Source of the DNA: a virus
Reading direction: 5' to 3' (one strand)
Length of the DNA stretch: 64,000 bases
IMG/VR virus record: IMGVR_UViG_3300045988_151219
Coordinates: 1-64,000 of that record
Below the pieces are notes generated by a model, which worked only from the letters and a program-made list of their open reading frames with translations, ran no database searches and was not told the DNA's origin. Shown here piece by piece: positions 1,758 to 61,464 of this stretch; the first letter of the stretch is position 1; each line of letters starts with the position of its first letter. Made by a program: the position numbers and the translations under genes.

Positions 1758-3260
1758 TCACCCCTTCTTGTATATTATAACTCCACCTAAAGTTTCTTCT
1801 ATTTCATATTTTTCTACTGAATCAAATTGTCCAGCATACTTCTTAAATATATTATGATTCTTAAATGCTTTTAGTCGGTTAGGATTTACTAAAATAGTTG
1901 TGTTTTTAGAAAGCCCTACCTCTTGTCTGCAATTTAAGAATGTGTCAGATAAAATAAGATATTTCAGCTTGTCAGTCTTTCCAAAGATGTAATAGTAGTT
2001 AGTAGCTTTTCTCATATTAAATTTTGAAAGGTCTAAATATTCTAAACTACTATCTTCATAAAACATGTAAGAAAAATCTTCCCCTAAAGCGGTATTGAAT
2101 GATGAAACGTCAATAGCCTTTAATGCTTTGTTATTTGCAAAAGCAAAAGAGAAATCTTTACAAGCTTTAGTTACTATATAAGAAGTGTCTATTATCTGTG
2201 CATTTCTGCAATAATTAAACATTCCTTTTATGGATTTACATTCTGTGAAATCCATAAAAAACTTAGGAAATACTTTAACTTTAAGCATTCCTTTAAATAT
2301 ATCAGTAGCATTATTAACTACTAATCCTGAATTTAAGAATTTAATTGTGTCTCTCGGCAAGATAGTTATTTTATCATAGTTTTTAATGTAATTCTTAGCA
2401 TAGTTACTTAAATCCACAGATGAACTCGATGTCTTAAGCACACTATCCATAGTAATAACTACATCAGCATCTCCTTGCGGAATTTTGTGTGGTAACTCAA
2501 CTATCTTATTATTTACATTTACAATAGGTGTAATATAATTGTTAGATAGCTTCTCTACAGATTTTATAGTAACTTCCTGATTAGATTTAAACCTTAAAGT
2601 AAGCTGTTGGTCTGTCTGCGGTTTATATATCTGTTCTTCACCATCAACTAAAAGAGTAAAAGCCTTAATATTAAGACAAGAGATATTATAAAACCTAAAC
2701 AATTTAACTAAGTTATAGTTAAATTTAAAGTAATAATTCCTATCAATCTTAGGTATTATTATCTGCCTATTCTTGTTAATGTCCATTCCTTCTTCATAGT
2801 TACAGAATTTATAAAGTTCTGTATCAAAAGCTTTTAAAGTAACTTTTGTACCCTTAACGAATTTTTCTTTGAACGTTCCTTTATAGAATTTTTTATTGAC
2901 GGTAACTACTCCAACATTTGAAGAAATATTTACATTATAAGTAACTAATTCTTTTAAAACTACTGAAATTGTAGTGTCTTTATAAATATCAAAAGCTACT
3001 GAAAAAGTTTCATATCTCTTACTGTTTATGTAAGTACATGTAAACTCGTAGCCGTAATCAACTTCTACGGTAACTGTTAAAGGCTCACCATAAGCAAAAT
3101 AAAGCTCTTCACCTTCTTTCCCATTGATAGTGACTTTCCCACTATCAAACGGTAAAACGGTTACTTTGCAATCTGGTATTTTATCAATTACAGGTGTTAC
3201 TTCATAATCAGAATCTATCTGTATTATTTTAGTAATTTGTTTTTTAGAATCCATGCCCAC
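1758..3260 (-). CDS. putative receptor-binding protein with C-terminal BspA/DUF285-type leucine-rich repeats
   Basis: 500-aa ORF. The C-terminal third has the repeat pattern F..C..L..ID.S.F......M F... seen in DUF285/BspA LRR proteins (FNYCRNAQIIDTSYI, FANNKALKAIDVSSFNTALGEDFSYMFYEDSSLEYLDLSKFNMRKATNYYYIFGKTDKLKYLIL). Confidence 0.65.
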   Translation of the reverse strand: MGMDSKKQITKIIQIDSDYEVTPVIDKIPDCKVTVLPFDSGKVTINGKEGEELYFAYGEPLTVTVEVDYGYEFTCTYINSKRYETFSVAFDIYKDTTISVVLKELVTYNVNISSNVGVVTVNKKFYKGTFKEKFVKGTKVTLKAFDTELYKFCNYEEGMDINKNRQIIIPKIDRNYYFKFNYNLVKLFRFYNISCLNIKAFTLLVDGEEQIYKPQTDQQLTLRFKSNQEVTIKSVEKLSNNYITPIVNVNNKIVELPHKIPQGDADVVITMDSVLKTSSSSVDLSNYAKNYIKNYDKITILPRDTIKFLNSGLVVNNATDIFKGMLKVKVFPKFFMDFTECKSIKGMFNYCRNAQIIDTSYIVTKACKDFSFAFANNKALKAIDVSSFNTALGEDFSYMFYEDSSLEYLDLSKFNMRKATNYYYIFGKTDKLKYLILSDTFLNCRQEVGLSKNTTILVNPNRLKAFKNHNIFKKYAGQFDSVEKYEIEETLGGVIIYKKG

Positions 3261-6249: not shown

Positions 6250-7440
6250 TTATGATTTGGGTTGTATCTGAATTGTACCATCACCGTTATCTGTTATAGT
6301 GTACTTGTTAGACGAAGCTAAATTTATATTGTAAGAATTATACTGTCCTGTAAGTCCAACAGTTTCTATACCATCTTTAAGTTGCTTTAAATCCAAATTA
6401 CTTATATTATCTATCAGTAATGTACATGAAGTCGTTATTCCAGCCTTTTCTAATTCAGCAACAAAATTACTGTTTACAAGTATACTTTTATCTTCCTCTT
6501 TAATTAAAATATACTTAAGTTTAGAACAACCTAAAACAAAACTAATAAATTTTGTAGTGTTACTTAGTTTAATTCCTCTTAAATCAAGAACTTCTAAATT
6601 AAAACAATTTTCACATAAAGAAGCTATATTAATATTGTCAACTGTTCGCTTAAAAGAACTTTCAGATAGAAGAAGCTGTTTTAAGTTTTCACTACCTTCA
6701 AAAGCATGAAATAAAGTATTTACTCTACTTAAATTCATTCCAGATAAATCTACTTTTTCTAAGTTCCTACAATGTAACGCAAAAGAATCCATACTATTAA
6801 TATCACTTGTTTGAACTTGTATTTTCGGAACTTCTTTGAGTTCTTGACAATCAGCAAAAGTATGGTGCATTTCCTGAGCCTTAGCTTTTATACTTGTATT
6901 TTGCATGATAGCTTTTGTGTCAGCCGTTAATTCAGTCATTGTCTTATAAGAATCATGATACCAAGTATTCATATATGAACTAAAATCAATTTCAGTAGCT
7001 AAAGTCGCCGCTGATGTTTGAGTAATTTTAATGTCCGATAAAACATACTCATGATATTCTGTAACATTTTCATCCGGTTCAGAGGATTCTATTTTCATAG
7101 TACCAATATTATAACCTTCTTTAGGTTTAAGTTTTACGTCTATGCTAAAAAATCCATTTCCTAAATACTTATTAGGAATGTCTACTCCACTTACTTCTCC
7201 ATTAGTACCAGAAGCAACATATATATTATAAACAGGGTACTGATTAGTGAAACTATCTTTATCTATCGTTAAATTATAACCTTTATCAAGTAAATCGTCT
7301 ATTGAAACTCCTGTCTGAATTGATTTTATTTTAGCCGGCATTTCCTTCGGCTTTAATTTTTCTGTAGTTTCTGTTTTTTCTCGAATAGCATCACCAATAT
7401 CAGATAAAGTCTTTTCTTTTATTAAAGCTAATTCACTCAT
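6250..7440 (-). CDS. putative receptor-binding protein with BspA/DUF285-type leucine-rich repeats
   Basis: 396-aa ORF. The N-terminal LSDIGDAIREKTETTEKLKPKEMPAKI motif is typical of this protein class. Repeats FADCQELKEVPKI, FALHCRNLEKVDLSGMNLSRVNTLFHAFEGSENLKQLLL, CENCFNLEVLDLRGIKLSNTTKFISFVLGCSKLKYILI. Confidence 0.65.
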   Translation of the reverse strand: MSELALIKEKTLSDIGDAIREKTETTEKLKPKEMPAKIKSIQTGVSIDDLLDKGYNLTIDKDSFTNQYPVYNIYVASGTNGEVSGVDIPNKYLGNGFFSIDVKLKPKEGYNIGTMKIESSEPDENVTEYHEYVLSDIKITQTSAATLATEIDFSSYMNTWYHDSYKTMTELTADTKAIMQNTSIKAKAQEMHHTFADCQELKEVPKIQVQTSDINSMDSFALHCRNLEKVDLSGMNLSRVNTLFHAFEGSENLKQLLLSESSFKRTVDNINIASLCENCFNLEVLDLRGIKLSNTTKFISFVLGCSKLKYILIKEEDKSILVNSNFVAELEKAGITTSCTLLIDNISNLDLKQLKDGIETVGLTGQYNSYNINLASSNKYTITDNGDGTIQIQPKS

Positions 7441-7860: not shown

Positions 7861-9381
7861 TTATAAAAACAGATGGTCTATCTCTGCATCAGTTATTCTT
7901 GTTACGTCTAACTGCTGTGTAATGCCATCTAAATCTTGTTTGGGCGCAAAAGTTGTATCTGCATATGTTTTAGAAATATATGTGTTGTCAGCTTCTGCTT
8001 TTGTTAAATGCCCTTTGACTGTTTCTTTATAAGCTTCAAAATCTACTTTTGTTAAGAATTTAGCATCAGCTTCTGCTTGTGAATAAGTTTCTGTCTTTAA
8101 ATAAAATAAAGTCTTATTGAAATTATCCTGGTCATCTTTAAAAGCATTTAGTTTATCTTGCGTTATATATGTACCTAAAGAAGCTTTTGTTACATATAAA
8201 TTTAAAATATCCTGCGTAACATAATTTCCTAATGCAGACAACGGAGCGTAATAAGTATCGATAACATTACCTTTAGAATCCTGTGTCGCTTTGGTAGCAA
8301 ATTCAACTTCGGCACCAGTCACTTTCCCATTCTGAATCATCGTACTTCCTACTTTTACGTAAGTCTGTGCTTCTAATTCAGTAAAGCTATCCGCTGAAAG
8401 AGTTCCGTCCGGTGTAATAACAAGATTCTTTCCTACTTTTACTACACCTAAAGTAGTTGCTGTAGCCGGCTGAACAGACCCGCCTTTAGTCATGTAGATA
8501 GTGTCAGCTACTGCTTTAGTTAAATAAGTTTCGTGAATTACATTACCTAACTCATCTTTTTCAGCATGTTCAGCTTTGTTTGCTTCCCCTGTATAGTAAA
8601 AAGCATCCAAAGAACCTGCTATTTGACTATTCTGTTTCCATAATATTTTATAAGTAGGCACTACAAAACTAATATTATTTAAATGTAAAACTTCTTTCTT
8701 TAATGCATTTAAATAATCAGTAACATAAGATAAATCATTTGAAATTGTTCCGTCTGTAGTAACAGCTATTCCGTTCCCTATCTTAACTGAACCTAAATGG
8801 TCTTGAGCTGCAATAGAAACTTGATTATTAGTTGTGTCGCTGCAAATAATAGAAATCTGTCGGTCAATTATAATGAGTAAGAAAGCATAAGATGTATGAG
8901 CTTTTAATATAAAATTTACTTTGTCCGTTATAATCTTGTACGTAGAATGACAAGTAATTTTTATATTTCTATCAATATTAAATTCACTTCCGTCTACATT
9001 TAATTTAACTACTCGTGAAGTTCCTATAGGATTAGATTCCTGAGGAATATTGACTATTAGCTGTGAATATTTTGAAGTTAGATTGTAAGCGTCATATTCT
9101 GAATTAACTTGAACAGTAGCAGAATCCGTTGTTAAAGCTTTAGGAACTATTATATTGCTTGTCGGAATGTAAGTATTATTTTGTGACGTAATATTTAAAA
9201 CTTTAGGTTTTATTAACTCATCTTTTGTAGCATATCCCGACAAGTCATACTGCGGTATATTGACAGTAACTTCTGCACTACCATCGTAAGAAGCTTCTAC
9301 TCCGCCCGTAAATATTAAAGAATAAGGATTCGGAAACTGTGCTTCAATGCTAACATTTAGTGTATTATTAGGTTTTGGCAT
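7861..9381 (-). CDS. tail fibre protein
   Basis: 506-aa ORF. Fibre motifs AEHAEKDELGNVIHETYLTK, ATKATQDSKGNVIDTYYAP, ATATTLGVVKVGKNLVITPDGTLS. C-terminal tag ITDAEIDHLFL. Confidence 0.75.
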   Translation of the reverse strand: MPKPNNTLNVSIEAQFPNPYSLIFTGGVEASYDGSAEVTVNIPQYDLSGYATKDELIKPKVLNITSQNNTYIPTSNIIVPKALTTDSATVQVNSEYDAYNLTSKYSQLIVNIPQESNPIGTSRVVKLNVDGSEFNIDRNIKITCHSTYKIITDKVNFILKAHTSYAFLLIIIDRQISIICSDTTNNQVSIAAQDHLGSVKIGNGIAVTTDGTISNDLSYVTDYLNALKKEVLHLNNISFVVPTYKILWKQNSQIAGSLDAFYYTGEANKAEHAEKDELGNVIHETYLTKAVADTIYMTKGGSVQPATATTLGVVKVGKNLVITPDGTLSADSFTELEAQTYVKVGSTMIQNGKVTGAEVEFATKATQDSKGNVIDTYYAPLSALGNYVTQDILNLYVTKASLGTYITQDKLNAFKDDQDNFNKTLFYLKTETYSQAEADAKFLTKVDFEAYKETVKGHLTKAEADNTYISKTYADTTFAPKQDLDGITQQLDVTRITDAEIDHLFL

Positions 9382-9605: not shown

Positions 9606-9629
9606 AATTCCCTTATATTATCGGGAATT
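9606..9629 (-). terminator. hairpin plus U-run after the second rSAM gene
   Basis: The minus strand reads AATTCCC-gataatataa-GGGAATT followed by TTCTTTTAT. The hairpin overlaps the stop codon at 9618-9620. Confidence 0.55.
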
Positions 9630-10676
9630 GAAAGTTAATTCTTCTAAAAGATTTTTATTCTTAGTAATTTCATCTAAAATAGAACCAAAATAAGTTTGTC
9701 GTATCTTACAATATAAGTCTTCTCTTCTCTCTTTTGTAACTAACGGACACCCTCCTCTACAGAAAGGAAGTGCTTTACACTCTTTACAAAAGTCTTTAAA
9801 GTCAGATGTAGGGTCAATTTCTTTGTTTAGATTTAAATTATTCTCTAAATCATAAATAGTACCGTTAGAATTAGAAATATTATGACAAGAATATAGATTA
9901 CCTGATAAATCTAAATTTATGACAGTATGTCCATTGCCACATGTACATTTTTCAAAAGTAAATGGATTTTTCAATGAAAACAATAATCTATTTAAAAGAG
10001 ATAATCCATATAAATAATAAATTGTCTCTTTCTTCTCTGTGTAGTCCTTTATGAACTGCATAATAATATATCTTGACTGCTCTTCTAATTTTTTAAAATC
10101 AAATTGATATAGGACTCTGTCCGACAATCCAGTATCTATAAGCAAATCAAGATTAACTCCTATATGCTTATTGTGTAACTGATAATACCAATTATCTATT
10201 GTTTGAAAAGAATCTAAAATATCTTTCGGATACGAATAAGAAGTAACTACTCCTGAAAGACTTAATGAATCTAATCTTATAATAGATTTTATTTTATTTA
10301 TATCTTTAAAAATATTGTATCTTCTTGTCTGTTCCGTATTATTTCCATCCCATGAAACAGCTACTCCTACTTTATTTAAGTTAAAAAATGTAATTACTTC
10401 TCTATTTAATAGAAGCCCATTAGTGATAATATGATAAGAAACGTTATACTGTTTTGTATTATTAACTATCTCTTTTATAGCTGGATAGTAAAGTAAAGGC
10501 TCTCCCCCAAAAAAGACAATAGGAAGCTTTTTATACTTTGAAATTATTCTGATAAAACTGTAAATATCTTCATTTATCTTTGATTTTATATGTCTATGTA
10601 CCAGCTGATGTTGTACACAGTATTTACAGTTAAGATTACAGCTATTACCTAAAATAATAAATATCTTATTTATCAT
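9618..10676 (-). CDS. radical SAM enzyme with C-terminal SPASM-type auxiliary Fe-S domain
   Basis: 352 aa. CxxxCxxC cluster motif GNSCNLNCKYC at the N-terminus. GGEP motif FFGGEPLLY. C-terminal Cys motifs CTCGNG...LYSCHN...FCKECKALPFCRGGCP...YCKI. Confidence 0.85.
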   Translation of the reverse strand: MINKIFIILGNSCNLNCKYCVQHQLVHRHIKSKINEDIYSFIRIISKYKKLPIVFFGGEPLLYYPAIKEIVNNTKQYNVSYHIITNGLLLNREVITFFNLNKVGVAVSWDGNNTEQTRRYNIFKDINKIKSIIRLDSLSLSGVVTSYSYPKDILDSFQTIDNWYYQLHNKHIGVNLDLLIDTGLSDRVLYQFDFKKLEEQSRYIIMQFIKDYTEKKETIYYLYGLSLLNRLLFSLKNPFTFEKCTCGNGHTVINLDLSGNLYSCHNISNSNGTIYDLENNLNLNKEIDPTSDFKDFCKECKALPFCRGGCPLVTKERREDLYCKIRQTYFGSILDEITKNKNLLEELTFNSR

Positions 10677-11328
10677 TGATATACTTCTTTACCGGAATAA
10701 TTCTACCCTTATAAGATGAATAAGGCTCCCCTATATAAATATCATTTCCCTCTAAATATTTAAATTTAAATTTGTTTCTCCCATACTGTAGAGGCTCTGA
10801 TAATCCGGCATAGTTTATATGAACAGGTCTATTCCAAAAACTACTACCCTGTTTAAAGTTAAAGCTGATATTTATATAATCTCCATCTTTAAAAATAGTT
10901 AAATCCTCTAAATAATAACTAAATTGTAAGTCTAATTGGTTTATCTCTTCTAAATTTAAATATGATAATTCACTATAATTATCTGTATCACTTTCTAAAG
11001 TTGTCTGATTATATGGTAAAAAGACTTTAATAAAATAATCACTATTACATTTATCTATCTGCATTACTCCATATGTATGAAATATCTTATTAAATTCTCG
11101 TGCTGTACAATTAAATATTTGACAAAGTTCTCTAAAATTATAAAGCGGTAAAAGAACTTTATCTTCAAATTTGTAAGATATTAAAGTAGACGAACCTTCC
11201 CTAATGTTGTCTAAATCTAATTCAAGAACAGAATCTTCTACAAATAAAGTAAGTAAATTTCCATCTCTATTTAACTTAATATTTTTAGTGAGTTTTACTC
11301 CTGAATTTAAGAATGGAAAAATCTTCAT
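10666..11328 (-). CDS. hypothetical protein, partner ORF of the downstream rSAM
   Basis: 220-aa ORF with no motif recognised. It overlaps the upstream rSAM by 44 nt and the downstream rSAM by 11 nt, which suggests translational coupling. Confidence 0.65.
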   Translation of the reverse strand: MKIFPFLNSGVKLTKNIKLNRDGNLLTLFVEDSVLELDLDNIREGSSTLISYKFEDKVLLPLYNFRELCQIFNCTAREFNKIFHTYGVMQIDKCNSDYFIKVFLPYNQTTLESDTDNYSELSYLNLEEINQLDLQFSYYLEDLTIFKDGDYINISFNFKQGSSFWNRPVHINYAGLSEPLQYGRNKFKFKYLEGNDIYIGEPYSSYKGRIIPVKKYINDK

Positions 11329-12271
11329 AATTTCTATTTATCCCCTCTATAGCTGCTTTGTGTATTTCATAGTAAGATTTAAACCATGTATAAAGTGTTT
11401 TGTAATAAAAACATTCTCTACTGTGTGCTTTGCTTTTAATACAAGCTCCCCCACACATAGAATGTACGGGACATGACAGACACTTAGTGAGTTTAGTATT
11501 ATATATCTGCTCTAAATCTTCCGGCTTTTCATCTCGTATATATAAACAAGTTAAGTAATTTCCTTCTATATCAACCTTGTCTCTTTTACTATTTGCACAA
11601 TAAGTTTCATATTGTGCATAATCAGCTTTTAAAGCTGTATATAACTGTGAAAATAGCCCTAAGTATTTCTGGTTTATAATATTATACTGCTCATAATCAT
11701 CTACTAAAGACTTTATTCTACTAATTATCTGTGTAGTAAGCTCCTTATAATCTTCTAAAGTTAATGAGTATTTTGAATTATAGGAAGAAGTCTCATGCAT
11801 AATATGCGGATAGAAACTAAGACCTCTTTTTATTATCTTCTCTTTTTCTGCAAATTGTTTATATAAAACAGAAAAATCTGTATTGCTGTGAAAGATTGTA
11901 GTAGATACTCCTACATTAGGATAATTTATTTCATAAGTAAACGGGTCGTACCCTCTTAAAGAACAATCCCCATCATAACTAAAAATAATCTGAAAATTAT
12001 TATTTAAGAAAAATTGTTTATATAATTTAAAGTTTATGCCATTAGTAGTGATTGAGTATTTTATTGTCTTAGGAAGCTGCCTTACTATGTATTTTATTTG
12101 CGACATATACATAGTAGGCTCTCCACCCATAAACCGAATGTGAGTGTAATTTCTTAAAACAGCTAAGAAAGAGTTAGATATTTTTTCTAACTCTTTCCCA
12201 ATTTCTCTATGACAATAACTACAGTTAAGATTACATTTACTACCTAAATAAATAGATATAGTTTTACCCAT
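11285..12271 (-). CDS. radical SAM enzyme with C-terminal SPASM/twitch-type domain
   Basis: 328 aa. GSKCNLNCSYC. FMGGEPTMY. C-terminal YCANS...YLTCLY...LTKCLSCPVHSMCGGACIKSKAHSRECFYY. Confidence 0.85.
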   Translation of the reverse strand: MGKTISIYLGSKCNLNCSYCHREIGKELEKISNSFLAVLRNYTHIRFMGGEPTMYMSQIKYIVRQLPKTIKYSITTNGINFKLYKQFFLNNNFQIIFSYDGDCSLRGYDPFTYEINYPNVGVSTTIFHSNTDFSVLYKQFAEKEKIIKRGLSFYPHIMHETSSYNSKYSLTLEDYKELTTQIISRIKSLVDDYEQYNIINQKYLGLFSQLYTALKADYAQYETYCANSKRDKVDIEGNYLTCLYIRDEKPEDLEQIYNTKLTKCLSCPVHSMCGGACIKSKAHSRECFYYKTLYTWFKSYYEIHKAAIEGINRNYEDFSILKFRSKTH

Positions 12272-13089
12272 TACTCACCTAAGATAAGATTGTATTCATT
12301 CCACACTTCATACCATTTACGTCCTAATTTAAGCTTAAAAGCTCCTTTATAACCAAAAGGATATAAACGTACAGAAGCCTTCCCTTTAACCAATTTAATT
12401 CTTCTTGCATTAAGAAGTCCTACAGTTGATTCTAATAGTACATCTTCATTATCTATGTCTCGGTCTAAAGGTGAAGCAAAGTTTCCTTTATATTTCTGAA
12501 TTTCTATGTCTATATATTCTTTATCTTTTACAGAAATAGGTTTAGAAAAATCTCCGGCTTTTATAAATCCCTCTTTATTTGCTTGGTATTCTTTTCCATC
12601 TATTTTAACAGAATATGAATCCCACAAGTCTACTCTGGGGTGGTTTTGTGTAGATAACTTACTTGAATCAAAAGTTCCTAATTCATAAGGTATGTCTGCA
12701 TCAATAGTAAAATTCTCTTTTTTACCCTCAAATACTCTTATAATAATATCTCGTTCAGCTGGAGTTATTATGCCTGTATCTATTTGCAGTATATCAGCTT
12801 CTGAATAAAGCTGAATCATATCTGTATAATCCATCTTAATTGAAGTTCCTAATCTATTCATGTTAAGAAACTTATAATCAGAATGAGATATTGTCCGGAA
12901 ATTTTTTACTTTAGAGTTAGGACATCTTGCAAAAATATAAGAATTATATGATTGCAAAGATTCTATTGTATCAAAGCCCTTTAAATCACCATAACTACAA
13001 CTTGCTTGGATAGAAAGAAATGTTCCTGCTAATTGTATTGTAGCTTTTGTAGTAGAATTACTTATTTCATTAAATAATATTTTCAGCAT
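12271..13089 (-). CDS. hypothetical protein, partner ORF of the downstream rSAM
   Basis: 272-aa ORF with no motif recognised. Its stop overlaps the start of rSAM 11285..12271 by 1 nt. Confidence 0.65.
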   Translation of the reverse strand: MLKILFNEISNSTTKATIQLAGTFLSIQASCSYGDLKGFDTIESLQSYNSYIFARCPNSKVKNFRTISHSDYKFLNMNRLGTSIKMDYTDMIQLYSEADILQIDTGIITPAERDIIIRVFEGKKENFTIDADIPYELGTFDSSKLSTQNHPRVDLWDSYSVKIDGKEYQANKEGFIKAGDFSKPISVKDKEYIDIEIQKYKGNFASPLDRDIDNEDVLLESTVGLLNARRIKLVKGKASVRLYPFGYKGAFKLKLGRKWYEVWNEYNLILGE

Positions 13090-13454
13090 TTCTTTACCTC
13101 AACAGGATATCCGTTTATTATTATATAATTAAAACCATTAACTGTTATATCATAAGCTTGTGTAGCTTTTACTTCTTTAAATAAATCTTCATGTTCTGTA
13201 TTATTAAACTCTTTTATATAAATAGTTTTGTTTTTTTCTACTACTTGTTCTCCATAAAGTGAGTAGATTTTTGATTTATCCGAAATAATAAGATTAGAAT
13301 TAAATGTAGATTGTAAAGCTTTTTTAATATTAACTTTCTTAATTGATTTTACTTCACAAGGAGAACGTTGTAGAGAAATAACAATATCCCCTTCTTTTAA
13401 ATCTTCTATATTAATTAACCCTGTTATAGCCTGTATCTTTCCACTTACTATCAT
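13083..13454 (-). CDS. degenerate Hint (intein-like) domain protein lacking the catalytic Cys1
   Basis: Start refined to ATG at 13454 (MIVSGKIQ...), preceded by AGGAGGT that is encoded in the last codons of the fibre gene. ITGLINIEDLKEGDIVIS resembles the Hint N-terminal block and AYDITVNGFNYIIINGYPVEV resembles the C-terminal block. No nucleophile and no HN terminus. Confidence 0.5.
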   Translation of the reverse strand: MIVSGKIQAITGLINIEDLKEGDIVISLQRSPCEVKSIKKVNIKKALQSTFNSNLIISDKSKIYSLYGEQVVEKNKTIYIKEFNNTEHEDLFKEVKATQAYDITVNGFNYIIINGYPVEVKKC

Positions 13455-13455
13455 A

Positions 13456-14559
13456 TCACGGACCTCCTGTATCATCACCACAATCACATTGACAATTACA
13501 ATCTGTCTCTCGCTTCTCAAAGGTATGTGAGTGAGATTTTTCCATTAAATAATTAATAATGTCTATTAATTTGTGTGAAGCTGCTCCCACGCCTGTGTGT
13601 GTATGCAAGTTTTCAATAACATGTTTCCCCCCATTTGAATAAGCAGACTGAAGATTCAATGACGGTTGTGTACTTCCTGATACAGCTAATATAGTTGCAG
13701 GCGACAACATAATAGAAAAAGGTGTGTCGTTTACTTTAATACTTCCATTCCCACCACGGCAATAAATAGCTCCATCCGGTTGGTTTATCCATATCTGTAA
13801 AGACTCATTTTCTTTGTTTTCCGGAATATTTATTAATTGACCCCACTGATTCGGCTGATGTTGAAACACCTCACTATTATATGACGAAATGAAAATTCCC
13901 TTTTCATTCCAGCTTTTATTTTCTCCTGGGTTTGCTGGAACATAATTTCCACCATACCTATGAAGATTTTCCCATATGTGGTCAACGTCTGAAATTCTTG
14001 TCCAGTTCGTAAATACTTCTCCGTCATTTACTCTATAATGTAAAGACGGATTAATTCCGTAAGACTGTCCTACTGATAATATCTGTAACGTCTGCTCTAC
14101 ACTGTAAATACAGATACCGTTCCAGTCTGATCCTCTTGCAAATTCAGCCGGCTCTGAATTGTTATTAGGTGAATTGCCGTAAAAGAAACAGCTTTCATTT
14201 AGACTATTTAACTGTCCTGTATTTTGTAATCCCTTTTTATTAGAGATTGAATTAGTTATTATATCTTTTAAAGAGTCAGCTAATTTCTCTAAAGTAACTG
14301 CTTTATCAACTATCTTTGATGTTTGGACTGAATTTTCAGAAAGCTTAGCTGCTGTAATTATAAAGTTCTTTAAATGTCTTTCTTCAATAGAAGCATTTGA
14401 TATCTTAGAACTGGTAATAGAACTGTCAGCTAATTTTGGGTTTGTTACAGCTTCATCTTGTAGTTTCGGTGTAGATACTGAATTGTCTTTTATCTTAGTC
14501 TGTTCAGACAGTTTTTTGACTAAGTATTCTAACCCTTCCTCATTTAGTTTTTTTGACAT
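13456..14559 (-). CDS. tail fibre / receptor-binding tip protein with HxH motifs and a Cys-rich C-terminal tail
   Basis: 367 aa. N-terminal repeats of the type S.TPKLQDEAVTNPKLADSSITSSKISNASI...SKIVDKAVTLEKLADS. C-terminal LHTHTGVG, SHSHTF and DCNCQCDCGDDTGGP. Confidence 0.75.
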   Translation of the reverse strand: MSKKLNEEGLEYLVKKLSEQTKIKDNSVSTPKLQDEAVTNPKLADSSITSSKISNASIEERHLKNFIITAAKLSENSVQTSKIVDKAVTLEKLADSLKDIITNSISNKKGLQNTGQLNSLNESCFFYGNSPNNNSEPAEFARGSDWNGICIYSVEQTLQILSVGQSYGINPSLHYRVNDGEVFTNWTRISDVDHIWENLHRYGGNYVPANPGENKSWNEKGIFISSYNSEVFQHQPNQWGQLINIPENKENESLQIWINQPDGAIYCRGGNGSIKVNDTPFSIMLSPATILAVSGSTQPSLNLQSAYSNGGKHVIENLHTHTGVGAASHKLIDIINYLMEKSHSHTFEKRETDCNCQCDCGDDTGGP

Positions 14560-15606: not shown

Positions 15607-18600
15607 TTAAATTGTCTTTGCTATTACTATAAGTTTCTTGCACCTCGGAGGTGTGAGAACTCCTATTGCTGAATTGGTTTGAAGCTCTATCTTTATTCTT
15701 AATTTCTTGCTTGGCGTTAAATGGTCTTTGTGCCAATAATATTCTGTAAATTCAGAATCTACAGTCTTTGTAGTAGCTTCAGCATCTTTTAGTAATACCC
15801 AATTAACCCCATCGTCTACTGAATAATATACCTTGATAGTTGCCCCTGTATTTTTACACTCATTCAGATAAAGCTTAATGTCATTAAAGGTATTATCAAA
15901 TTCAACTTGTCTTGAAATATACTTTCCTTTTAATTTTGAAGAATAAGAAGTAAGAGACATACACTGTGACGAAATCATCGGCGCCCTTGTAGTCTTAGCT
16001 TTATAAGTACATCTTAAATCAATCTTATTAGCTATGTTTTCAAGCTTTGCTAAATTATATATTTCAAGCGGTTGCCATGCTCCCGAAGAATTAATTCTAT
16101 ATTCCCAATTTAATGAAGTTTCCGCTGGAACAGAAGCATCTACTGATAATACTATATAATCTACCTGATTTAAGGTTACTCTCTTAAACTCAATAGACCC
16201 TGTTTCATTAAATTTAGCTGTCCTTAAAGTAAACTTCAAGTCCATGTCCTGATGTGCAGTCCATGTCATAGCATTAGATGAACTGAACAAAACACCAGCC
16301 GTATACGGATTAGAATTAACTACTTTTCCAGTCTTTACTTCTCTTTCCCCTAACTGGGATACCCACATTGCCGGCTTCGCTGAATCAGACATTATTACAA
16401 TACAATACTGCGTATCAGCTAAACACTTGATAGCATTACCAAAAGTTACTTTTGTAGGTACAGAAGCATCCGATGAAGTCTTAATCATGTTATGAGGTAC
16501 TATTACTTCTGAATAACATTCTGCCCCAGGATATCCGTTAATTACATTTCTAATCTGTACTACAATAGGTAAGTTATTGTCTGTGTTTGAAGCAAAGAAT
16601 AAATCTACAGAAGTTAAATATTTTTCCTGTGTAAACATGAAAGTTTCTGCTAAGGGGTCTACAGCATGTACTACTGTCTTATGCTCAAAGATAGTCTCAA
16701 TAGTTGTATGCTTTCTGCCATTAGCTGTGTAAGTAGTTGACCCTGATTTAGCTTTGTTTACAGCATCCCCTAAATATTCAATTTTAACTTCTTTAGTACC
16801 ACAAGGAACATTCTTAGGTATTGTAAATACAGCTTCGACATTACCTTCAGCATCAGCCGTTACAGAAGTATAAGACTGTGTTCCGATTGTGTAGGGGTCT
16901 CCTACTTTAGTAGTTCCTTTCGGTATTAAGCTAACCGGAATGCTGTCAAAATAACATCTAATATTCTTAGCGAAAGCTGGAAATCCCGCGGATTTAATAG
17001 TAACAGGTCTTGAACGTATATAAGTAATCAAAGAATCTTTAACTTGTGTAGTTTTCTTCTGTGTTACTTCTGTCGCATAAATACCTGATTCAGCTTGACC
17101 TCTATACTCGTTAGTAAATTCAGCAGTTACATTAGCCATATTTTCAAAGTATTTAGAAGCTGCTTTGTTCCACCATACCCTGGCATTTCCTGAACCTATA
17201 TCTCTATGTAAATCCGCATTTATCATAGTAGTACCGGTATTTTCAGTAGTAGTTATTTTCTCATTTTCTACCCAATTGTCTACTGAAGGAGATAAAGTAA
17301 TAGGAACTAACGGGTCAAATACCTGGTATGGATTGACTAACATAGTTTGTGTAGCTGTAGGTTGAGTTAAAGCTACTTCTTCAATATAAGGTGTCGTAAT
17401 GATAACACCCATCTCTGATTTTGAAGTGTCACCAGCCTCATTTACAGTTAAATCAACATTGTTAGTTGTAAAAGGTAACTGCAATTCTTGAGAATCTATA
17501 TCTATTAAGCAGTCATATTTATCTGAACCTTTATCGTAGTTTACGTCTGCTTTAGTAAATGAAATAAATCCGTCAGTAAATACACCTCTTAACTGTGTTG
17601 CCGGTTCTCCTTCTATAGCTTTCTTGTCTAAATCCGTTATAGAATCGTTATATTCTAAATCATCTACTCTCCGTATAGTATTCTGGATATCTTCCATGGT
17701 ACTATCTTCAATAGACATATTTATAATAGTAGCAACATCTCCATTTCCTTTAAGGAAAATAGAACCTAAAGAAAGAGTATTGTCATCATTCACTACCGGT
17801 GGAACTACTTTATCTTCTAAGTCCGGTATCCCCACAGTATCTATTATATTTCCGTTTTTATCTATAGAGATTAAATCTTTTCTTGCTAAATAAAAATTGT
17901 ATGAGAAAGAAACAGCTGTGCCTTGTGCCGGAATAATAGTTGGGTCTATTATTTCAACAACCTGTCTGCCTTTATACGTATAAATCTTGTAGTATGCTGG
18001 GTCAGAAGCAACGTTAAAGTTGTAATTATACGTTACTTTGTAACCTGAACCTGGGTTCGGTTGCCTTTCCGGTGAACCATTATTTTCCGAACGCCATACT
18101 ATATTATTACCCGAAACATAATAATCTTTAAATTGATTATATACTACTCCGTTTTGTTCGACTTTAGTTACAGAACCAGCTACTACCGGAGTATGTGGTA
18201 GAACATCTTCACCGTCTTTTACAGCACCACGTGTTACAGTATCAGTTACTGTACGCTGAACTAAAAATTCGTTAATAGAACGAATAGGCGTATGCCTCAT
18301 GATAAACTGGTAATTACCGTTAGACCCTTTACGTACAGACATAATATCACCCTGTATTAATCGGGTCTCTTTTGATTTAGGCACAGAAAAAGTGAAGTCT
18401 GCCGGCTTCTCTACTTCATAACCTAAAACATAGGCTTTGCCTTTTGTACATGTAAAATATAACTTATTAGGGTCAGGATTAGGATAATCGAATCTCTGTG
18501 AAATTAATAAGCCTCTCTTGCGATAATTACCTGATTCATCGTATGTTCTTCTGGCTAATATTTCTGTTATTCTGGCGTACTCATTATTTTCCTGGTTTTC

Positions 18601-19131
18601 AGCAGACTTGCTTGTTTGAAGTTTGCCGTCTTTTATTGTATAGATAACCGGAGCATTTTCTCTATTTATACCAATAGCTACAGTTTCCTTAATAGCATGC
18701 ATGCCTGGCTGTCCATAGTTTTCATTGCCTTCAGCTGGGTCATATAAAGCTGTATCTTCTGATTCGGTAATTAATTCAGAATGAACATAAGGACAAAGTC
18801 TTTCTTCCCCTACTCCTGCTATCTCTATCATAGTAGAGTCAAACTCTCTAATATCTCCGTCTAAGTAAATATCACCCTTAGCTATTCTGGCATAGTTACG
18901 GTGAGTATTAGCATCTTCTACAATAGAAAGCTCCATACCGTTTATTATATTTCCGTTTTTATAAAAAGTATCCCCTAAGCGTTTAATCTTGTCAACAACC
19001 ATATACTGGTTATCATTCCAATCAGACGCTTGAGCCACTCTTCCAGGAATAGCAAGAATTTTATTATACTTTTTATTTTTGTCATAACGGACAAAGTATT
19101 GACCTAAATTTACACCGTTATCGTCTTTCAT
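15607..19131 (-). CDS. large virion structural protein (baseplate/fibre-associated)
   Basis: 1174-aa uninterrupted ORF directly downstream of the baseplate genes. The N-terminal region (ILAIPGRVAQASDWNDNQ...IAKGDIYLDGDIREF) is reminiscent, from memory only, of DUF4815-type phage structural proteins. Confidence 0.65.
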   Translation of the reverse strand: MKDDNGVNLGQYFVRYDKNKKYNKILAIPGRVAQASDWNDNQYMVVDKIKRLGDTFYKNGNIINGMELSIVEDANTHRNYARIAKGDIYLDGDIREFDSTMIEIAGVGEERLCPYVHSELITESEDTALYDPAEGNENYGQPGMHAIKETVAIGINRENAPVIYTIKDGKLQTSKSAENQENNEYARITEILARRTYDESGNYRKRGLLISQRFDYPNPDPNKLYFTCTKGKAYVLGYEVEKPADFTFSVPKSKETRLIQGDIMSVRKGSNGNYQFIMRHTPIRSINEFLVQRTVTDTVTRGAVKDGEDVLPHTPVVAGSVTKVEQNGVVYNQFKDYYVSGNNIVWRSENNGSPERQPNPGSGYKVTYNYNFNVASDPAYYKIYTYKGRQVVEIIDPTIIPAQGTAVSFSYNFYLARKDLISIDKNGNIIDTVGIPDLEDKVVPPVVNDDNTLSLGSIFLKGNGDVATIINMSIEDSTMEDIQNTIRRVDDLEYNDSITDLDKKAIEGEPATQLRGVFTDGFISFTKADVNYDKGSDKYDCLIDIDSQELQLPFTTNNVDLTVNEAGDTSKSEMGVIITTPYIEEVALTQPTATQTMLVNPYQVFDPLVPITLSPSVDNWVENEKITTTENTGTTMINADLHRDIGSGNARVWWNKAASKYFENMANVTAEFTNEYRGQAESGIYATEVTQKKTTQVKDSLITYIRSRPVTIKSAGFPAFAKNIRCYFDSIPVSLIPKGTTKVGDPYTIGTQSYTSVTADAEGNVEAVFTIPKNVPCGTKEVKIEYLGDAVNKAKSGSTTYTANGRKHTTIETIFEHKTVVHAVDPLAETFMFTQEKYLTSVDLFFASNTDNNLPIVVQIRNVINGYPGAECYSEVIVPHNMIKTSSDASVPTKVTFGNAIKCLADTQYCIVIMSDSAKPAMWVSQLGEREVKTGKVVNSNPYTAGVLFSSSNAMTWTAHQDMDLKFTLRTAKFNETGSIEFKRVTLNQVDYIVLSVDASVPAETSLNWEYRINSSGAWQPLEIYNLAKLENIANKIDLRCTYKAKTTRAPMISSQCMSLTSYSSKLKGKYISRQVEFDNTFNDIKLYLNECKNTGATIKVYYSVDDGVNWVLLKDAEATTKTVDSEFTEYYWHKDHLTPSKKLRIKIELQTNSAIGVLTPPRCKKLIVIAKTI

Positions 19132-47082: not shown

Positions 47083-48558
47083 TTAATGTCCGTCAGACGC
47101 CTGTTTTTCATAGAAAATTGTACCCCGAACATAAAGATTCGGTTCAATCATTCTCTTAGCGTAAGACGTTGCATATCCACGGCGACCCATAAAGTCGTCC
47201 AACATTACCAGTTCAGTGTTGTAGAACATCATGTAGGGACTATATACAAACCCTGTATCAATCAGCGTATCGCCTTTGTAACCTACCAGGTAATCGTTTT
47301 CACCTAAGAACGGGTCAAAGTATACGTCTACCTGTCCATCAAGTTTACCTGCAAAATACGGACCAGCTGCCGGAGCTGCTGAACCCTGAAAGCGGGGAGC
47401 CCCTACCATGTTTAAGAGGTCCTGTGCTTTCTTTCCGCAAACTACCCAATTACCGCGGACACGTTTTGTACGGTTGTAAATTGCGTTACACTGTACATGA
47501 ATTTCATTTACGAAAGTCTGAGCCCATTCAGACTGCGAAATGTTAGCTGCAAAAGCGTTGTAGTAGTTATTGAATGAAGAAACAGCTTTAGTACCGTTCC
47601 AAATAGAATTAATGATATCACCGTCAGTTTCATGTTTCAGTTCATTAGCAGCTGCAACAAGCAGTGATTCAGCAATATCAATACCCTGTGCCATCTGGAT
47701 ATCATAAGCTGCATCCAGTGAGAACAGTGAACGGAGCTTTCTCGGCTTAGCAGTTACAAACGTATCAGAAATCTGGATATTGATTTCCGGTACTGCTGCC
47801 GGAGCATATTCTAAATCCTGTTCATAAGAAATAGATACATCGTGAGGACCAGCAACAATGCCCGCAAGTTCTACTACGCCGGTAGCATAGTCAACAGTAC
47901 CTGTAATAGTTCCGCCAGTTGCTTCTGCTAATACTCCATCAGAAGAGTCTTCAACAACTGCATCACCTACGTGGATTAATACAGTTCCAGGAACTACCGG
48001 TACATTTTCAATAGACGTTTTATAAGTAGCAGTAGCTGTCGGTTCATGTGCTTCATCTTCAACTACTTCGCCAGTATAGTTACGTCCATTGTAACCGGCA
48101 GTTTCAAACTGCCCAAATAAAGTATCGCCTTTTTTATTGCGACCTCTGTTTGTACCACGGACATATTTCAGGAAGAAAATCTGCCCCTGTTTCTGCTGCA
48201 AAGGCTGTACAGATACAAGCTGTTCAGCAATGATGTTCGGAAAGACTCCCGTGATCACATCGAAAGCCTGGCGTTTCAGATTCAGTGTATTAACGTTACC
48301 TGAATTATTATATTTGTAAGACTGTGTACCGCTGATTCCGAAAGTCGGGTCAGCAGCTTCGTAAATGGGATGACCCATAGTCTTGCAGTTATACGCCTGG
48401 TCTACTGATTCAAGAAGCATTCCCAAACGAATCTTTTCTTCGTCAGAAAATGAACGACCTTTTGAACGACGGTCTGCTTCTACACAGTCCATACGTCCTT
48501 TGTACTTTTTAAGCAGATATTCACTCTGCTGATATAATTTACTCTGCCATGATTCCAT
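47083..48558 (-). CDS. major capsid protein
   Basis: 491 aa, immediately after the protease-scaffold gene and followed by a strong hairpin. Visibly GC-richer codon usage than the neighbours. A gp23-like N-terminal propeptide has a candidate cleavage site at IYE/AADP. Confidence 0.8.
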   Translation of the reverse strand: MESWQSKLYQQSEYLLKKYKGRMDCVEADRRSKGRSFSDEEKIRLGMLLESVDQAYNCKTMGHPIYEAADPTFGISGTQSYKYNNSGNVNTLNLKRQAFDVITGVFPNIIAEQLVSVQPLQQKQGQIFFLKYVRGTNRGRNKKGDTLFGQFETAGYNGRNYTGEVVEDEAHEPTATATYKTSIENVPVVPGTVLIHVGDAVVEDSSDGVLAEATGGTITGTVDYATGVVELAGIVAGPHDVSISYEQDLEYAPAAVPEINIQISDTFVTAKPRKLRSLFSLDAAYDIQMAQGIDIAESLLVAAANELKHETDGDIINSIWNGTKAVSSFNNYYNAFAANISQSEWAQTFVNEIHVQCNAIYNRTKRVRGNWVVCGKKAQDLLNMVGAPRFQGSAAPAAGPYFAGKLDGQVDVYFDPFLGENDYLVGYKGDTLIDTGFVYSPYMMFYNTELVMLDDFMGRRGYATSYAKRMIEPNLYVRGTIFYEKQASDGH

Positions 48559-52230: not shown

Positions 52231-52235
52231 AAACT

Positions 52236-52568
52236 TTATTCCTCATAAGAAAATCCGATTCCGTTATATCTCGGTCGGCCTAAAGCTTCTATTGTGAGCT
52301 TATATAAATCTTTACTTCTAATCACTACTATATCAAAATCATATATTGTGTGATTAACATTCTGGCGATATTTAATTTTAAATCCGCCTGTAAATTTAGT
52401 GCTGTTATTTACATACCGCCCATCAGTCGCAATAGCAGGAACGAAATATTTCTCATAATCATTCCTGCTCACGTCTATAGAAATGATTTTATTACTGTCT
52501 TCTACTTCTTCTAAGTCAGTACGATAATCGATTGAATTAAGAAAAGATATAAGTACCTCTTTTAACAT
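52236..52568 (-). CDS. hypothetical protein
   Basis: 110-aa ORF between the AAA and vWA genes, with 1-5 nt spacers. Confidence 0.55.
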   Translation of the reverse strand: MLKEVLISFLNSIDYRTDLEEVEDSNKIISIDVSRNDYEKYFVPAIATDGRYVNNSTKFTGGFKIKYRQNVNHTIYDFDIVVIRSKDLYKLTIEALGRPRYNGIGFSYEE

Positions 52569-52569
52569 C

Positions 52570-55500: not shown

Positions 55501-55683
55501 TGGACGAACCTGATATATAGTTGGTGATTTTATTGAGCTTACTACTGATGAAGTAAACTCATCTGATAGATTGTTAAATTGTGAGGCTTTAGCTGTCAGT
55601 AAAAGATTATTTGTATCAAAGTCTACTACTTTGTTTGATATAACGGGACATTTTTCTAAGAAAGGTAAATAATCTTGTACCAC
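52570..55683 (-). CDS. MoxR/dynein-type (AAA_5-like) ATPase with two AAA modules
   Basis: 1037 aa. Module 1 has Walker A LLLGQSGVAKSAMV, then LVDIRLAFLSRLDLQG and Walker B VLFLDELMRC. Module 2 has ETASSMGKSS, LIDVNLAEQDRLDLMG and Walker B IIHFDEMNRL. Confidence 0.8.
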   Translation of the reverse strand: MVQDYLPFLEKCPVISNKVVDFDTNNLLLTAKASQFNNLSDEFTSSVVSSIKSPTIYQVRPFNFYVMTEPDFVVYSIKKHMEKIKAMIVEVDYNDVLRNSYVDTAESGTTVVYSDIDGQEIGGVSDSYYLDFCLNHKDSLTDDHPFNNYINESIQRKPMKLMTIDEANLKDLFNKVDDDEFKNSVGNVESGTPTYVSRLDVYFQNDKPQNRIPLLLGQSGVAKSAMVKKLADQYGYRLVDIRLAFLSRLDLQGLSKVNNTEDLEDLSEIVANSAPASFMIECLDSYVDFCRKSIPIIEEKIETAEDYDKERLTKILNKFKEGAKPPVLFLDELMRCYPPIRQAFTKILSDKEFMGHPMKYAKIVAASNYAVGKEEDLQSIYQVGISDDAAFNDRFEPIPILPEDVIKPWKAWADEKSEGDRTNIHPVVREYLEKFPTQYYDFSLVEKVYNDTGDTDKAGETSYPNFRTWEMASNYLYQHPDKVIKKDIFMGLLGEGGENFYDYLTKLGYKEAELSDDVMSDFIEQGIDSNTPILLETASSMGKSSRLKAIANKRKALLIDVNLAEQDRLDLMGIPTTVSVARYILGGLNLNESELNELPKLSEFNLPEKTTIKACDGELYYKLRKAADVGQEVIIHFDEMNRLSDTTLMSAILEVISDHRFRGIKFNKDRVKVVGSCNVGEAYSDVKPLDPAFSARFSVLKKPEFDELDLKSFQKYMKDSEFAPEVQKYFNDLAPEDAIAFMNTVEKRSLECSSSSTRAWEDLSTFIKNSKSTSMFRGVVLFPDEKTQRQVADLISGEGKDTDFVDVYNTVKKYIHKWAGARGDYSVTLGGEQVDSQSVAETLQELVASHTSDSIKEDDSLYRTFQRLAVIARQIDIEVMRDRKEAFTYIVGSDASSKFGQFYNNVSDREIEHYDLEDCVSIDILNKFLEQEISIIPVIEKRYSVVNSLFKQYIDHFDNKDPEYDREVVYAFLNSLPSNEYKVNMLYTGKDSTYFRKFINKAFDTADLLVELMDSVGVVVSDEIKAKVAANINKGAK

Positions 55684-57283: not shown

Positions 57284-57319
57284 TGGCAGTACCCTTCTAC
57301 AAACAGTTTATATTTTATA

Positions 57320-58404: not shown

Positions 58405-58405
58405 G

Positions 58406-60442: not shown

Positions 60443-60443
60443 T

Positions 60444-61460: not shown

Positions 61461-61464
61461 TTAT

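Follow-up and report, generated by a model that had tools for sequence, protein, structure and literature searches.

PapB and CteB are maturases that combine a radical S-adenosylmethionine (SAM) core with a full seven-cysteine SPASM domain, and their substrates are Cys-rich with Asp, Asn or Gln beside the cysteines. PapB joins Cys to Asp through a thioether within Cxxx(D/E) motifs, also accepts other spacings, and is able to act without a leader on motifs at the C-terminus (PMC12715619). These two families give the best full-length profile matches of R1, one of two radical SAM enzymes (R1 and R2) encoded in a stretch of 64,000 nucleotides (nt) of viral DNA (IMG/VR record IMGVR_UViG_3300045988_151219, positions 1-64,000; this whole stretch is referred to as the window). 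In the window, R1 and R2 are part of a cassette with two partner proteins, A and B, and a Hint-like protein, H, which follows a gene for a fibre protein of 367 amino acids (aa) ending in a short Cys tag. We regard it as rather probable that the cassette provides a radical-SAM-dependent post-translational maturation of this C-terminal tag, similar to the making of RiPPs (ribosomally synthesized peptides with post-translational modifications) but on a virion structural protein.

Among NCBIfam models, R1 is matched best by PapB (NF047865, E = 1.5e-28, full length), but its 100 bits are far below the equivalog cut-off of 340. The same is true of R2 against PapB (44.8 bits, cut-off 340) and of R1 against the SCIFF/CteB maturases (TIGR03974, E = 2e-19, 69.8 bits vs a cut-off of 425). 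Unlike PapB and CteB, the cassette enzymes have no RiPP recognition element (RRE), and instead of a short peptide they are predicted to modify the C-terminus of a fibre protein 367 aa long. They are also two paralogous enzymes and come with immunoglobulin (Ig)-like partners and a protein of the Hint fold; their genes lie among the structural genes of a phage operon, with no transporter or peptidase.

QhpD is a SPASM radical SAM enzyme that installs Cys-to-Asp/Glu thioethers in a protein subunit (QhpC) and not in a secreted peptide. It is the second-best NCBIfam match of R1 (TIGR03906, E = 1.4e-23), although the match covers the N-terminal core only, with 83.3 bits vs a cut-off of 453, and here there is no dehydrogenase context and the substrate would be a fibre tag. 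The sulfatase-maturating enzyme anSME (4k37, 370 aa) is likewise a SPASM enzyme without an RRE, of similar length and with a full-length protein substrate. R1 reaches 55.2 bits vs a cut-off of 349 with this family (TIGR03942, E = 6e-15), but the fibre tag has no C/S-x-P/A-x-R sulfatase motif and no sulfatase is encoded nearby. As judged from these profile scores, R1 and R2 resemble the PapB, SCIFF, anSME and QhpD families and are not members of them.

For H, the closest described systems are the bacterial intein-like (BIL) and other Hint domains (2lwy; Hint_2). H has the Hint fold, and related loci fuse a Cys-bearing Hint domain after a Cys-rich segment; BIL and Hedgehog-type domains cleave themselves off from such a downstream-fused position. 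In contrast, H of the window is a separate polypeptide with Met in place of Cys1 and no terminal His-Asn. Both enzymes match phrog_1802, a "radical SAM domain-containing protein" (2e-34 for R1 and 1e-25 for R2), so phage enzymes of this kind are already catalogued, but this PHROG comes without function, substrate or context, and A, B, H, the tag module and the Cys-rich proteins of related loci match no PHROG. What is already known, then, are radical-SAM/SPASM maturases and phage radical SAM genes; SPASM chemistry redirected to fibres and new accessory proteins would be new. The initial annotation, made from the letters of the window, knew of no such system in a tail-fibre locus, and full-text searching of a literature library likewise found no radical SAM/Hint/Cys-rich cassette described in phage fibre modules.

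Two SPASM enzymes and a tagged fibre

The tagged fibre gene and the cassette comprise the following features, in order of transcription.
13456..14559, minus strand: fibre protein, 367 aa, the predicted substrate, with a tail-fibre-like N-terminus and the tag module at the C-terminus
13459..13608, minus strand: portable C-terminal module of the fibre, consisting of a predicted recognition helix HTGVGAASHKLIDIINYLMEKSHSHTF and then the Cys tag
13459..13503, minus strand: Cys tag DCNCQCDCGDDTGGP, the C-terminal end of the fibre and predicted modification site
13463..13468, minus strand: AGGAGG ribosome-binding site for the H gene, read from the sequence, within the last fibre codons
13083..13454, minus strand: H, Hint / bacterial-intein-like protein, 123 aa (ortholog-profile and Pfam Hint_2 matches)
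12271..13089, minus strand: partner A, 272 aa, a predicted tandem Ig-like beta-sandwich
11285..12271, minus strand: R2, radical SAM / full SPASM enzyme, 328 aa (Pfam Radical_SAM, phrog_1802)
10666..11328, minus strand: partner B, 220 aa, a predicted tandem beta-sandwich
9618..10676, minus strand: R1, radical SAM / full SPASM enzyme, 352 aa (Pfam Radical_SAM; PapB-like)

The open reading frames (ORFs) at 9618..10676 and 11285..12271 had been annotated as radical SAM enzymes because of their cluster and GGEP motifs, which was borne out by Pfam. R1 (GNSCNLNCKYC, with C13, C17 and C20, and GGEP) matches Radical_SAM (PF04055) with E = 9e-13 and 49.1 bits vs a cut-off of 29.5; R2 (GSKCNLNCSYC, with C13, C17 and C20, and GGEP) matches it with E = 9e-7 and a borderline 29.6 bits vs 29.5. 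Both enzymes have the features by which the radical SAM superfamily is recognized, namely CxxxCxxC, GGE, and a PF04055 match above the gathering score. Both also keep the full SPASM signature C-x9-15-G-x4-C ... C-x2-C-x5-C-x3-C ... C, the seven cysteines of which ligate two auxiliary [4Fe-4S] clusters. In R1 the signature residues (C246, G259, C264, C297, C300, C306, C310, and C323) are invariant among 26 relatives, and in R2 (C225, G237, C242, C264, C267, C273, C277, and C287) they are at least 95% conserved in 44 orthologs. The C-termini had been described as SPASM/twitch-type, and since the seven-Cys signature is complete in R1 and R2, they are better described as SPASM and not as twitch.

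The SPASM assignment is based on this motif together with full-length alignment to SPASM structures. The R1 family profile aligns with CteB (5wgg, 8.7e-35, CteB residues 98-422) and with the whole length of anSME (4k37, 5e-25), with both alignments extending through the SPASM region; SuiB and SkfB were also matched. As the N-termini of R1 and R2 have only ~10 residues before CxxxCxxC, and the CteB alignment starts past the RRE of CteB, the two enzymes have no built-in RRE. Nucleotide and cofactor radical SAM clades (MoaA, QueE, NrdG, viperin) were considered and rejected, matching only the N-terminal ~90 residues of R2. The profile searches proposed with the initial annotation led to peptide/protein maturases (PapB, QhpD, SCIFF/CteB, anSME), and R1 and R2 are placed among the SPASM enzymes of this type because it is to them, and not to cofactor or sugar radical SAM enzymes, that the full-length alignments were obtained.

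R1 and R2 share 27% identity and, on their alignments, are old paralogs forming separate orthologous lineages that co-occur across many phages. The two units of partner and enzyme had been viewed as a duplicated twin; a simple duplication of recent date does not hold, as the duplication is ancient and the partners are only marginally similar. About 50 clusters of R1 homologs were found, and the closest homologs are all metagenomic.

Residues 13-106 of the fibre protein match PHROG tail-fibre families (E 1e-13 to 1e-15), and its last ~50 aa align with a tagged module of fibre-like proteins at other loci. The module ends in N-C-x-C-x-C-[GS]-D-D (NCQCDCGDDTGGP in the window), and its consensus, H[RT]G.PAGTY.LR.ILQ.L.N.SHT.E[FY]-x(4-8)-NC.C.C[GST]DD, was found in 24 distinct fibre-like proteins of 207-670 aa. 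Thus, the tag is preceded by a conserved helix-like stretch of ~20 residues (H.G.PAGTY.LR.ILQ.L.N.SHT), predicted to be amphipathic, and the window fibre conforms to this helix-plus-tag pattern (HTGVGAASHKLIDIINYLMEKSHSHTFEKRETDCNCQCDCGDDTGGP). In fibre-type proteins (207-670 aa), the tag reads N-C-x-C-x-C-[GST]-D-D plus 0-6 small residues, with N(-6), C(-5), C(-1) and DD invariant among 16 distinct tags. The same tag ends both fibre-like proteins and small (CQx)n proteins, with 1-3 proteins ending in it per cassette with A. No match to the tag module was found in Pfam, NCBIfam, PHROG or PDB. Among the ORFs of at least 60 aa on the minus (coding) strand of the window, the fibre tag is the sole C-x-C-x-C run; a second match, probably spurious, is in an ORF of 60 aa on the plus strand (48137..48319), antisense to the capsid gene.

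The DD of the tag is often followed by Gly-Gly (TGGP, SGGG, GG), encoded by the GGAGG-type Shine-Dalgarno sequence of the next gene (13463..13468 in the window, and likewise at other loci). Because the Gly-Gly codons coincide with this sequence, part of the apparent conservation beyond DD may be a translation signal and not a protein feature.

Related loci were collected by a scan of IMG/VR seeded with R1 (80 loci), using mechanical ORF calling and jackhmmer searches seeded with the window proteins. A second, independent sample was drawn from GTDB genomes and seeded with A instead of R1 (16 loci, 12 of them untruncated). In the IMG/VR loci, jackhmmer detected A in 52, B in 51 and H in 50, and the complete set of parts is found in about 52 viral contigs. 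A is present in all 16 GTDB loci, truncated ones included, and the full cassette in 12/12 untruncated prophage loci. The GTDB hosts, mostly Negativicutes, are Acidaminococcus, Phascolarctobacterium, Succiniclasticum, Megasphaera, Dialister, Selenomonadaceae and Ruminococcus. Prophages with the cassette are present in cultured Acidaminococcus fermentans, A. massiliensis and Megasphaera sueciensis (L088, L089, L092 and L100).

In ~48 IMG/VR loci the gene order is fixed as tail-fibre gene, R1, one or two Cys-rich proteins, H, A, R2, B and lysis genes, with a fibre-like protein of 207-220 aa encoded ~2 kb upstream, and the order R1-CysRich-H-A-R2-B recurs in 12/12 complete GTDB loci. The order in the window is rotated (tagged fibre, H, A, R2, B, R1), and loci L069 and L070 are alike but lack H. 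Locus L016 has a bona fide tail-fibre gene (phrog_2631, 4e-33) directly before R1, and in L094 the full enzyme set comes with two fibre proteins that carry the tag (212 and 463 aa) but with no small Cys-rich protein, in which L094 resembles the window. The gene-neighbourhood survey called for by the initial annotation places the cassette inside the receptor-binding modules of many phages. Beyond the window it recurs in roughly 100 phages and prophages, and its parts stay together in many phages that are unrelated.

The gene adjoining R1 in the first three contexts of its homologs encodes a (CQx)n-repeat protein with 15-19 cysteines, in two of the three fused to Hint. Related loci encode small Cys-rich proteins of 98-134 aa with a helix before the core; neither these nor the (CQx)n proteins have a Pfam, NCBIfam or PHROG match, and the (CQx)n proteins match no solved structure. 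R1-type enzymes nearly always have a Cys-rich ORF beside them. An ORF with a Cys run lies within 2 kb of a radical SAM gene in 70/86 loci, and the density of such ORFs is 0.254 per kb near these genes vs 0.017 per kb elsewhere in the same loci, a 15-fold difference. R1 falls into 33 clusters at 70% identity, of which ~10 carry the full cassette, and the association with Cys runs is therefore not confined to a single lineage.

The tag also follows the H-A-R2-B group. A strict [GS]DD regular expression is matched in 46/52 loci with A, and the other six have slight variants of the tag; among loci without A, it is matched in only three, all truncated just after R1. At loci with R1 only, the Cys-rich proteins have CNCDC-type runs lacking DD at their ends, or else there are upstream ORFs whose Cys/Asp/Glu-rich tails are looser. 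This co-occurrence of tag and cassette, seen in gene content and sequence, is the strongest available evidence pointing to the fibre as the substrate. The initial annotation had named either the fibre or the partners as the modified proteins; the fibre gains support from a conserved, portable tag that tracks the cassette, while the partners, which are folded and have no conserved Cys, do not.

Other arrangements were seen around R1 relatives. Loci with R1 and Cys-rich proteins but without A, B and H have PP-loop ATPase-like neighbours with SGGxDS/TGGxDST motifs (L005, 9785..12009 and 15832..16839; L010, 11721..12653; L053, 6795..7688), and in L005 such proteins are paired with a second, different radical SAM enzyme. 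This may be another way of tailoring the same Cys-rich substrates. A much larger radical SAM array occurs in the fibre region of some jumbo-phage-sized contigs (L003/L004, 11115..15059; L063; L074), with R1, a Cys-rich(-Hint) protein, three divergent radical SAM enzymes in a row and a Cys-rich 325-aa protein. In L081/L082, R1 follows a 567-aa protein that ends in SSSYDDYGGDGG, with no cysteine there. L104 (5800..7804), an Elusimicrobiota contig, encodes an R1-like enzyme and then an A homolog, with no Cys-rich ORF nearby.

Accessory proteins A, B and H

The partners had been taken for ORFs with no recognizable motif, but each of them turned out to be a conserved family. A forms 104 clusters with 45-67% identity, all unannotated, and is remarkably conserved for a fibre-module gene. 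The family is small, with 72 representatives among 1.84 billion proteins, and A adjoins a radical SAM gene everywhere it was seen, as do the two divergent A homologs that were checked. A tblastn search of 50,697 phage records gave no match, so no cultured phage among them carries A. B comprises 12 clusters in a word-indexed search and the 51 loci found by jackhmmer. Neither A nor B has a match in Pfam, NCBIfam or PHROG, and no solved structure covers either family.

Both partners are confidently predicted to be compact, folded tandem Ig-like beta-sandwich proteins without a disordered tail. The AlphaFold2 (AF2) model of A has a pLDDT of 92, and its best Foldseek matches are the D0-D1 Ig-like domains of intimin; that of B has a pLDDT of 88, with DUF3823 and FN3 pairs as best matches. 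RRE-like or substrate-like folds had been suggested as something to look for in the partners, but the Foldseek matches are not RRE-like, and beta-sandwiches were predicted instead. There is no conserved cysteine in A or in B, which makes both of them poor candidates for thioether substrates.

No similarity between A and B was found by direct BLAST, and an exhaustive profile search with A listed no B-family proteins. In hhalign the two families align over ~115 N-terminal residues with E = 0.002 and a probability of 14%, and their N-terminal halves have in common the motif [LM]QID[TK]...[IF]I[RK]VF as well as the order in which strands and helices are predicted. As the resemblance consists of a common motif and similar predicted secondary structure, it is a weak suggestion that A and B are distant paralogs.

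Uncharacterized phage proteins with the fold of A occur in BFVD (TM-scores of 0.55-0.62). Two of these, A0A8S5U5K0 and A0A8S5U5L6 of the uncultured Podoviridae sp. cthJQ11, are mutual paralogs with an A-like predicted fold (TM-score ~0.6) at ~10% identity to A. These models hint that A-like adaptors reach beyond what sequence searches detect.

H starts with an ATG at 13454, 8 nt after AGGAGG, and is 123 aa long; an earlier call of a TTG start at 13520 was corrected. The fibre gene stops with a TGA at 13458..13456, and the ATG of H lies one base further on. A fibre-H fusion by frameshift or read-through was considered and rejected because the strong Shine-Dalgarno sequence and ATG give H an independent start. 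The initial description of this ORF as Hint-like holds at the family level and with the start moved to 13454. The H ortholog profile matches PDB 2lwy, a bacterial intein-like domain, over its full length (E = 3.8e-5), and Pfam Hint_2 is matched by 5/7 H orthologs (best 2e-6, one above the gathering score), whereas the window copy alone gives E = 0.03. The Hint fold, as read from these profiles, is thus a property of the H family.

H begins with a conserved MI..G.v.T..GP and has Met at the position of the catalytic Cys1 of Hint domains and no conserved terminal His-Asn, which implies that it cannot perform the acyl shift. In L001 and L003, directly after R1, a Cys-rich segment is followed in the same protein by a Hint domain whose C[LF]xxGT start is intact, and free-standing H begins, with Met, exactly at the position of this start. 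These (CQx)n-Hint fusions (L001, 9121..9954; L003, 9119..9970) are presumably self-cleaving. They look like the ancestral state of a split tag and free-standing H, and the simplest history would be that a self-cleaving follower domain was split off and then lost its chemistry.

Proposed maturation of the fibre tag and competing explanations

If the fibre tag is the substrate, the radical SAM cluster and two auxiliary clusters of R1 and R2 would allow these enzymes to take a hydrogen atom from Asp, Asn or Gln of the tag, at a carbon of the side chain or of the backbone. This carbon would then be joined to the sulfur of a neighbouring cysteine, giving a thioether of the ranthipeptide or QhpC type, and the product would be a compact knot at the fibre tip, resistant to reduction and to proteases. 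Because R1 and R2 are without an RRE, the helix upstream of the tag is the candidate recognition element. Each enzyme would have its own docking adaptor, A or B, perhaps joined by H; these proteins would not be substrates, and H may be a tag-binding relic of a self-cleaving Hint follower domain. Thioether cross-links as the specific chemistry are proposed tentatively, by analogy with the nearest enzyme families. Equally tentative is the full picture, in which phages of strictly anaerobic Firmicutes would install C-S cross-links in virion fibre tags and, in many prophages, in long (CQx)n "cysteine ladder" proteins, aided by a new class of Ig-like adaptors in place of the RRE and by a domesticated, dead Hint domain.

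Several observations weigh against such a maturation of the fibre. Neither R1 nor R2 has a match to the Pfam SPASM model (PF13186) at E<=0.1, and this model is absent from the precomputed domains of the close homologs. All curated equivalog cut-offs are missed widely, and the chemistry is taken from the nearest enzyme families alone. The assignment of A to R2 and of B to R1 follows gene order alone. The raw counts of the survey overstate independence, since many loci are close relatives, and the R1 relatives in L058, L072, L078/79, L081/82 and L104 have no Cys-rich neighbour. Most prophage cassettes lie between tail-fibre and lysis genes, which is also a classic site for cargo genes. As for the canonical features of RiPP pathways, an RRE is found neither in the maturases nor as a separate protein of the cassette, and the short leader-core precursor may correspond to the tail of a 367-aa protein in the window and to the Cys-rich proteins of 98-134 aa in related loci.

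The location of the cassette could mean that it is cargo (a moron), in which the small Cys-rich proteins would give rise to a thioether peptide, either secreted or intracellular, be it a bacteriocin, a signal or an anti-defence agent, made for the lysogen, and the link with the fibre would be positional only. Prophage cassettes do sit between tail-fibre and holin/endolysin genes, the 98-134-aa proteins do resemble a leader with a Cys-rich core, and the nearest relatives of the enzymes are RiPP maturases. However, no small precursor is encoded in the window, L069/L070 or L094, where the tag is carried only by fibre-sized proteins, and the tag module ends proteins with tail-fibre-like N-termini. 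Moreover, no transporter or leader peptidase was found in any cassette inspected, and in the window the genes lie within an operon of structural genes, to which they are translationally coupled, in a lytic-type myovirus of 145 kb, which together make a cargo RiPP cluster unlikely. The enzymes might also modify the partners, with A as the substrate of R2 and B that of R1, in which case the tag would have no connection with them and might, for instance, bind metal or form a disulfide knot. This would account for the strict pairwise order and translational coupling (A to R2, B to R1), for the unusual conservation of A, which is never seen without a radical SAM neighbour, and for L104, where an R1-like enzyme and A have no Cys-rich ORF nearby. 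SPASM enzymes such as anSME and QhpD are able to act on whole proteins, which also speaks for such a role. Against it, neither partner has a conserved cysteine, both are predicted with high confidence to be compact beta-sandwiches with no disordered tail, and neither the Cys-rich ORFs beside R1 relatives lacking A or B nor the [GS]DD tag tracking H-A-R2-B would be explained; we therefore hold modification of A and B to be very unlikely.

The cysteines themselves may have another purpose. Tail-tip proteins of the lambda gpL type have an Fe-S cluster, and the tip of T4 gp37 has iron-binding HxH repeats; CxxCxxC spacing is like that of ferredoxin-type ligands, and fibres are trimers. The tags and (CQx)n repeats could by this account be metal or iron-sulfur sites of trimeric fibres, while the radical SAM enzymes carry out some other reaction on a residue, sugar or cofactor. 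The ferredoxin-like Cys spacing and the trimeric nature of fibres agree with it, and so do the PP-loop ATPase-like and additional radical SAM enzymes beside Cys-rich proteins, as they point to multi-step chemistry in related loci. Yet binding a metal requires no dedicated radical SAM/SPASM enzyme, and the adjacency is enriched 15-fold; the conserved Asn and Asp of the tag suit the acceptor residues of known Cys-to-Asp/Asn thioether enzymes; and the full-length similarity of R1 and R2 is to peptide maturases and not to sugar or cofactor radical SAM enzymes. We consider metal sites to be as improbable an explanation as modification of the partners, and maturation of the fibre tag is the reading we prefer.

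Phage setting and wider significance

The genes around the cassette agree with the location in a receptor-binding block given by the initial annotation, as a DUF4815 baseplate gene lies upstream, the 367-aa fibre matches PHROG tail-fibre families, and the window as a whole is a myovirus structural module. All genes of the block are on the minus strand and are transcribed in the order DUF4815 baseplate protein, two small ORFs, 367-aa fibre, H, A, R2, B, R1 and then fibre-like ORFs. Two of these flank the region described above.
15607..19131, minus strand: DUF4815-type baseplate protein, 1174 aa, upstream, marking the start of the fibre block (phrog_877, E = 2e-274)
7861..9381, minus strand: fibre-like protein, 506 aa, downstream of R1 (weak PHROG fibre matches)

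The DUF4815-type protein shares 34-35% identity over 99% of its length with its equivalents in SPO1-like and other Firmicute myoviruses. The overlaps along A-R2-B-R1 are 1, 44 and 11 nt, as had been noted initially, and H and A overlap by 7 nt. These overlaps between genes of one strand couple the cassette translationally to the other structural genes of this lytic-type myovirus of 145 kb. A copy of A with 97% identity was found on a metagenomic contig of 145 kb, and blastn of the region against cultured phages gave no match. The scan for promoters and terminators gave counts at the level of shuffled sequence and no convincing terminator inside the operon. The one long hairpin found (16 bp with a T-rich tail, 12163..12201, minus strand) lies within the R2 coding sequence and is probably due to chance, since terminator-like sites are no commoner than in shuffled sequence.

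The remaining window encodes a gp23-type capsid protein, a prohead protease, a sheath, a tape measure with lysozyme and a baseplate spike, as expected of the structural module of a large myovirus. The capsid proteins of Bacillus phage SP-15 and Listeria phage LIS04 share only ~34% identity with that of the window. A distal fibre-like protein (1758..3260, minus strand) contains DUF285 (BspA-type leucine-rich) repeats (E = 3.5e-8), and the ORF at 6250..7440 (minus strand) has a weak DUF285 match, which suggests that there are several alternative receptor-binding proteins. Upstream of the head genes (56279..62571, minus strand) is a tandem family of five consecutive ORFs of 334-368 aa with 24-38% mutual identity. 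Except for one sub-threshold UxaC hit, they have no Pfam match; being paralogs of one another, they were rejected as further radical SAM copies. Directly upstream of the prohead protease and capsid genes, a gene for an AAA+ ATPase of 1037 aa (AAA_5/AAA, MoxR/dynein-like) precedes one for a protein of 743 aa that has a VWA domain at its C-terminus (49999..55683, minus strand), an unusual pair within a head module.

Tail fibres determine which bacteria a phage can infect, and to our knowledge, very little has been described of covalent fibre chemistry beyond proteolysis and glycosylation. If the maturation proposed here is true, it would be the first case of a virus particle modified in RiPP-like fashion by radical SAM enzymes and would involve a new mode of substrate recognition by SPASM enzymes. 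It would also give a first testable role to three families, namely A, B and the free-standing dead Hint protein. Radical SAM "RiPP" hits inside prophage tail modules would then need a different reading in genome mining, and a portable tag of ~10 residues with two compact, leader-independent maturases would be of direct interest for the enzymatic macrocyclization of peptides and proteins. Such fibres expressed aerobically or without the cassette may be non-functional, which would matter for the engineering of receptor-binding proteins. For the phages themselves, the cassette would represent a new layer of virion maturation that depends on anaerobiosis, which would be relevant to gut phages of Negativicutes and other Firmicutes.

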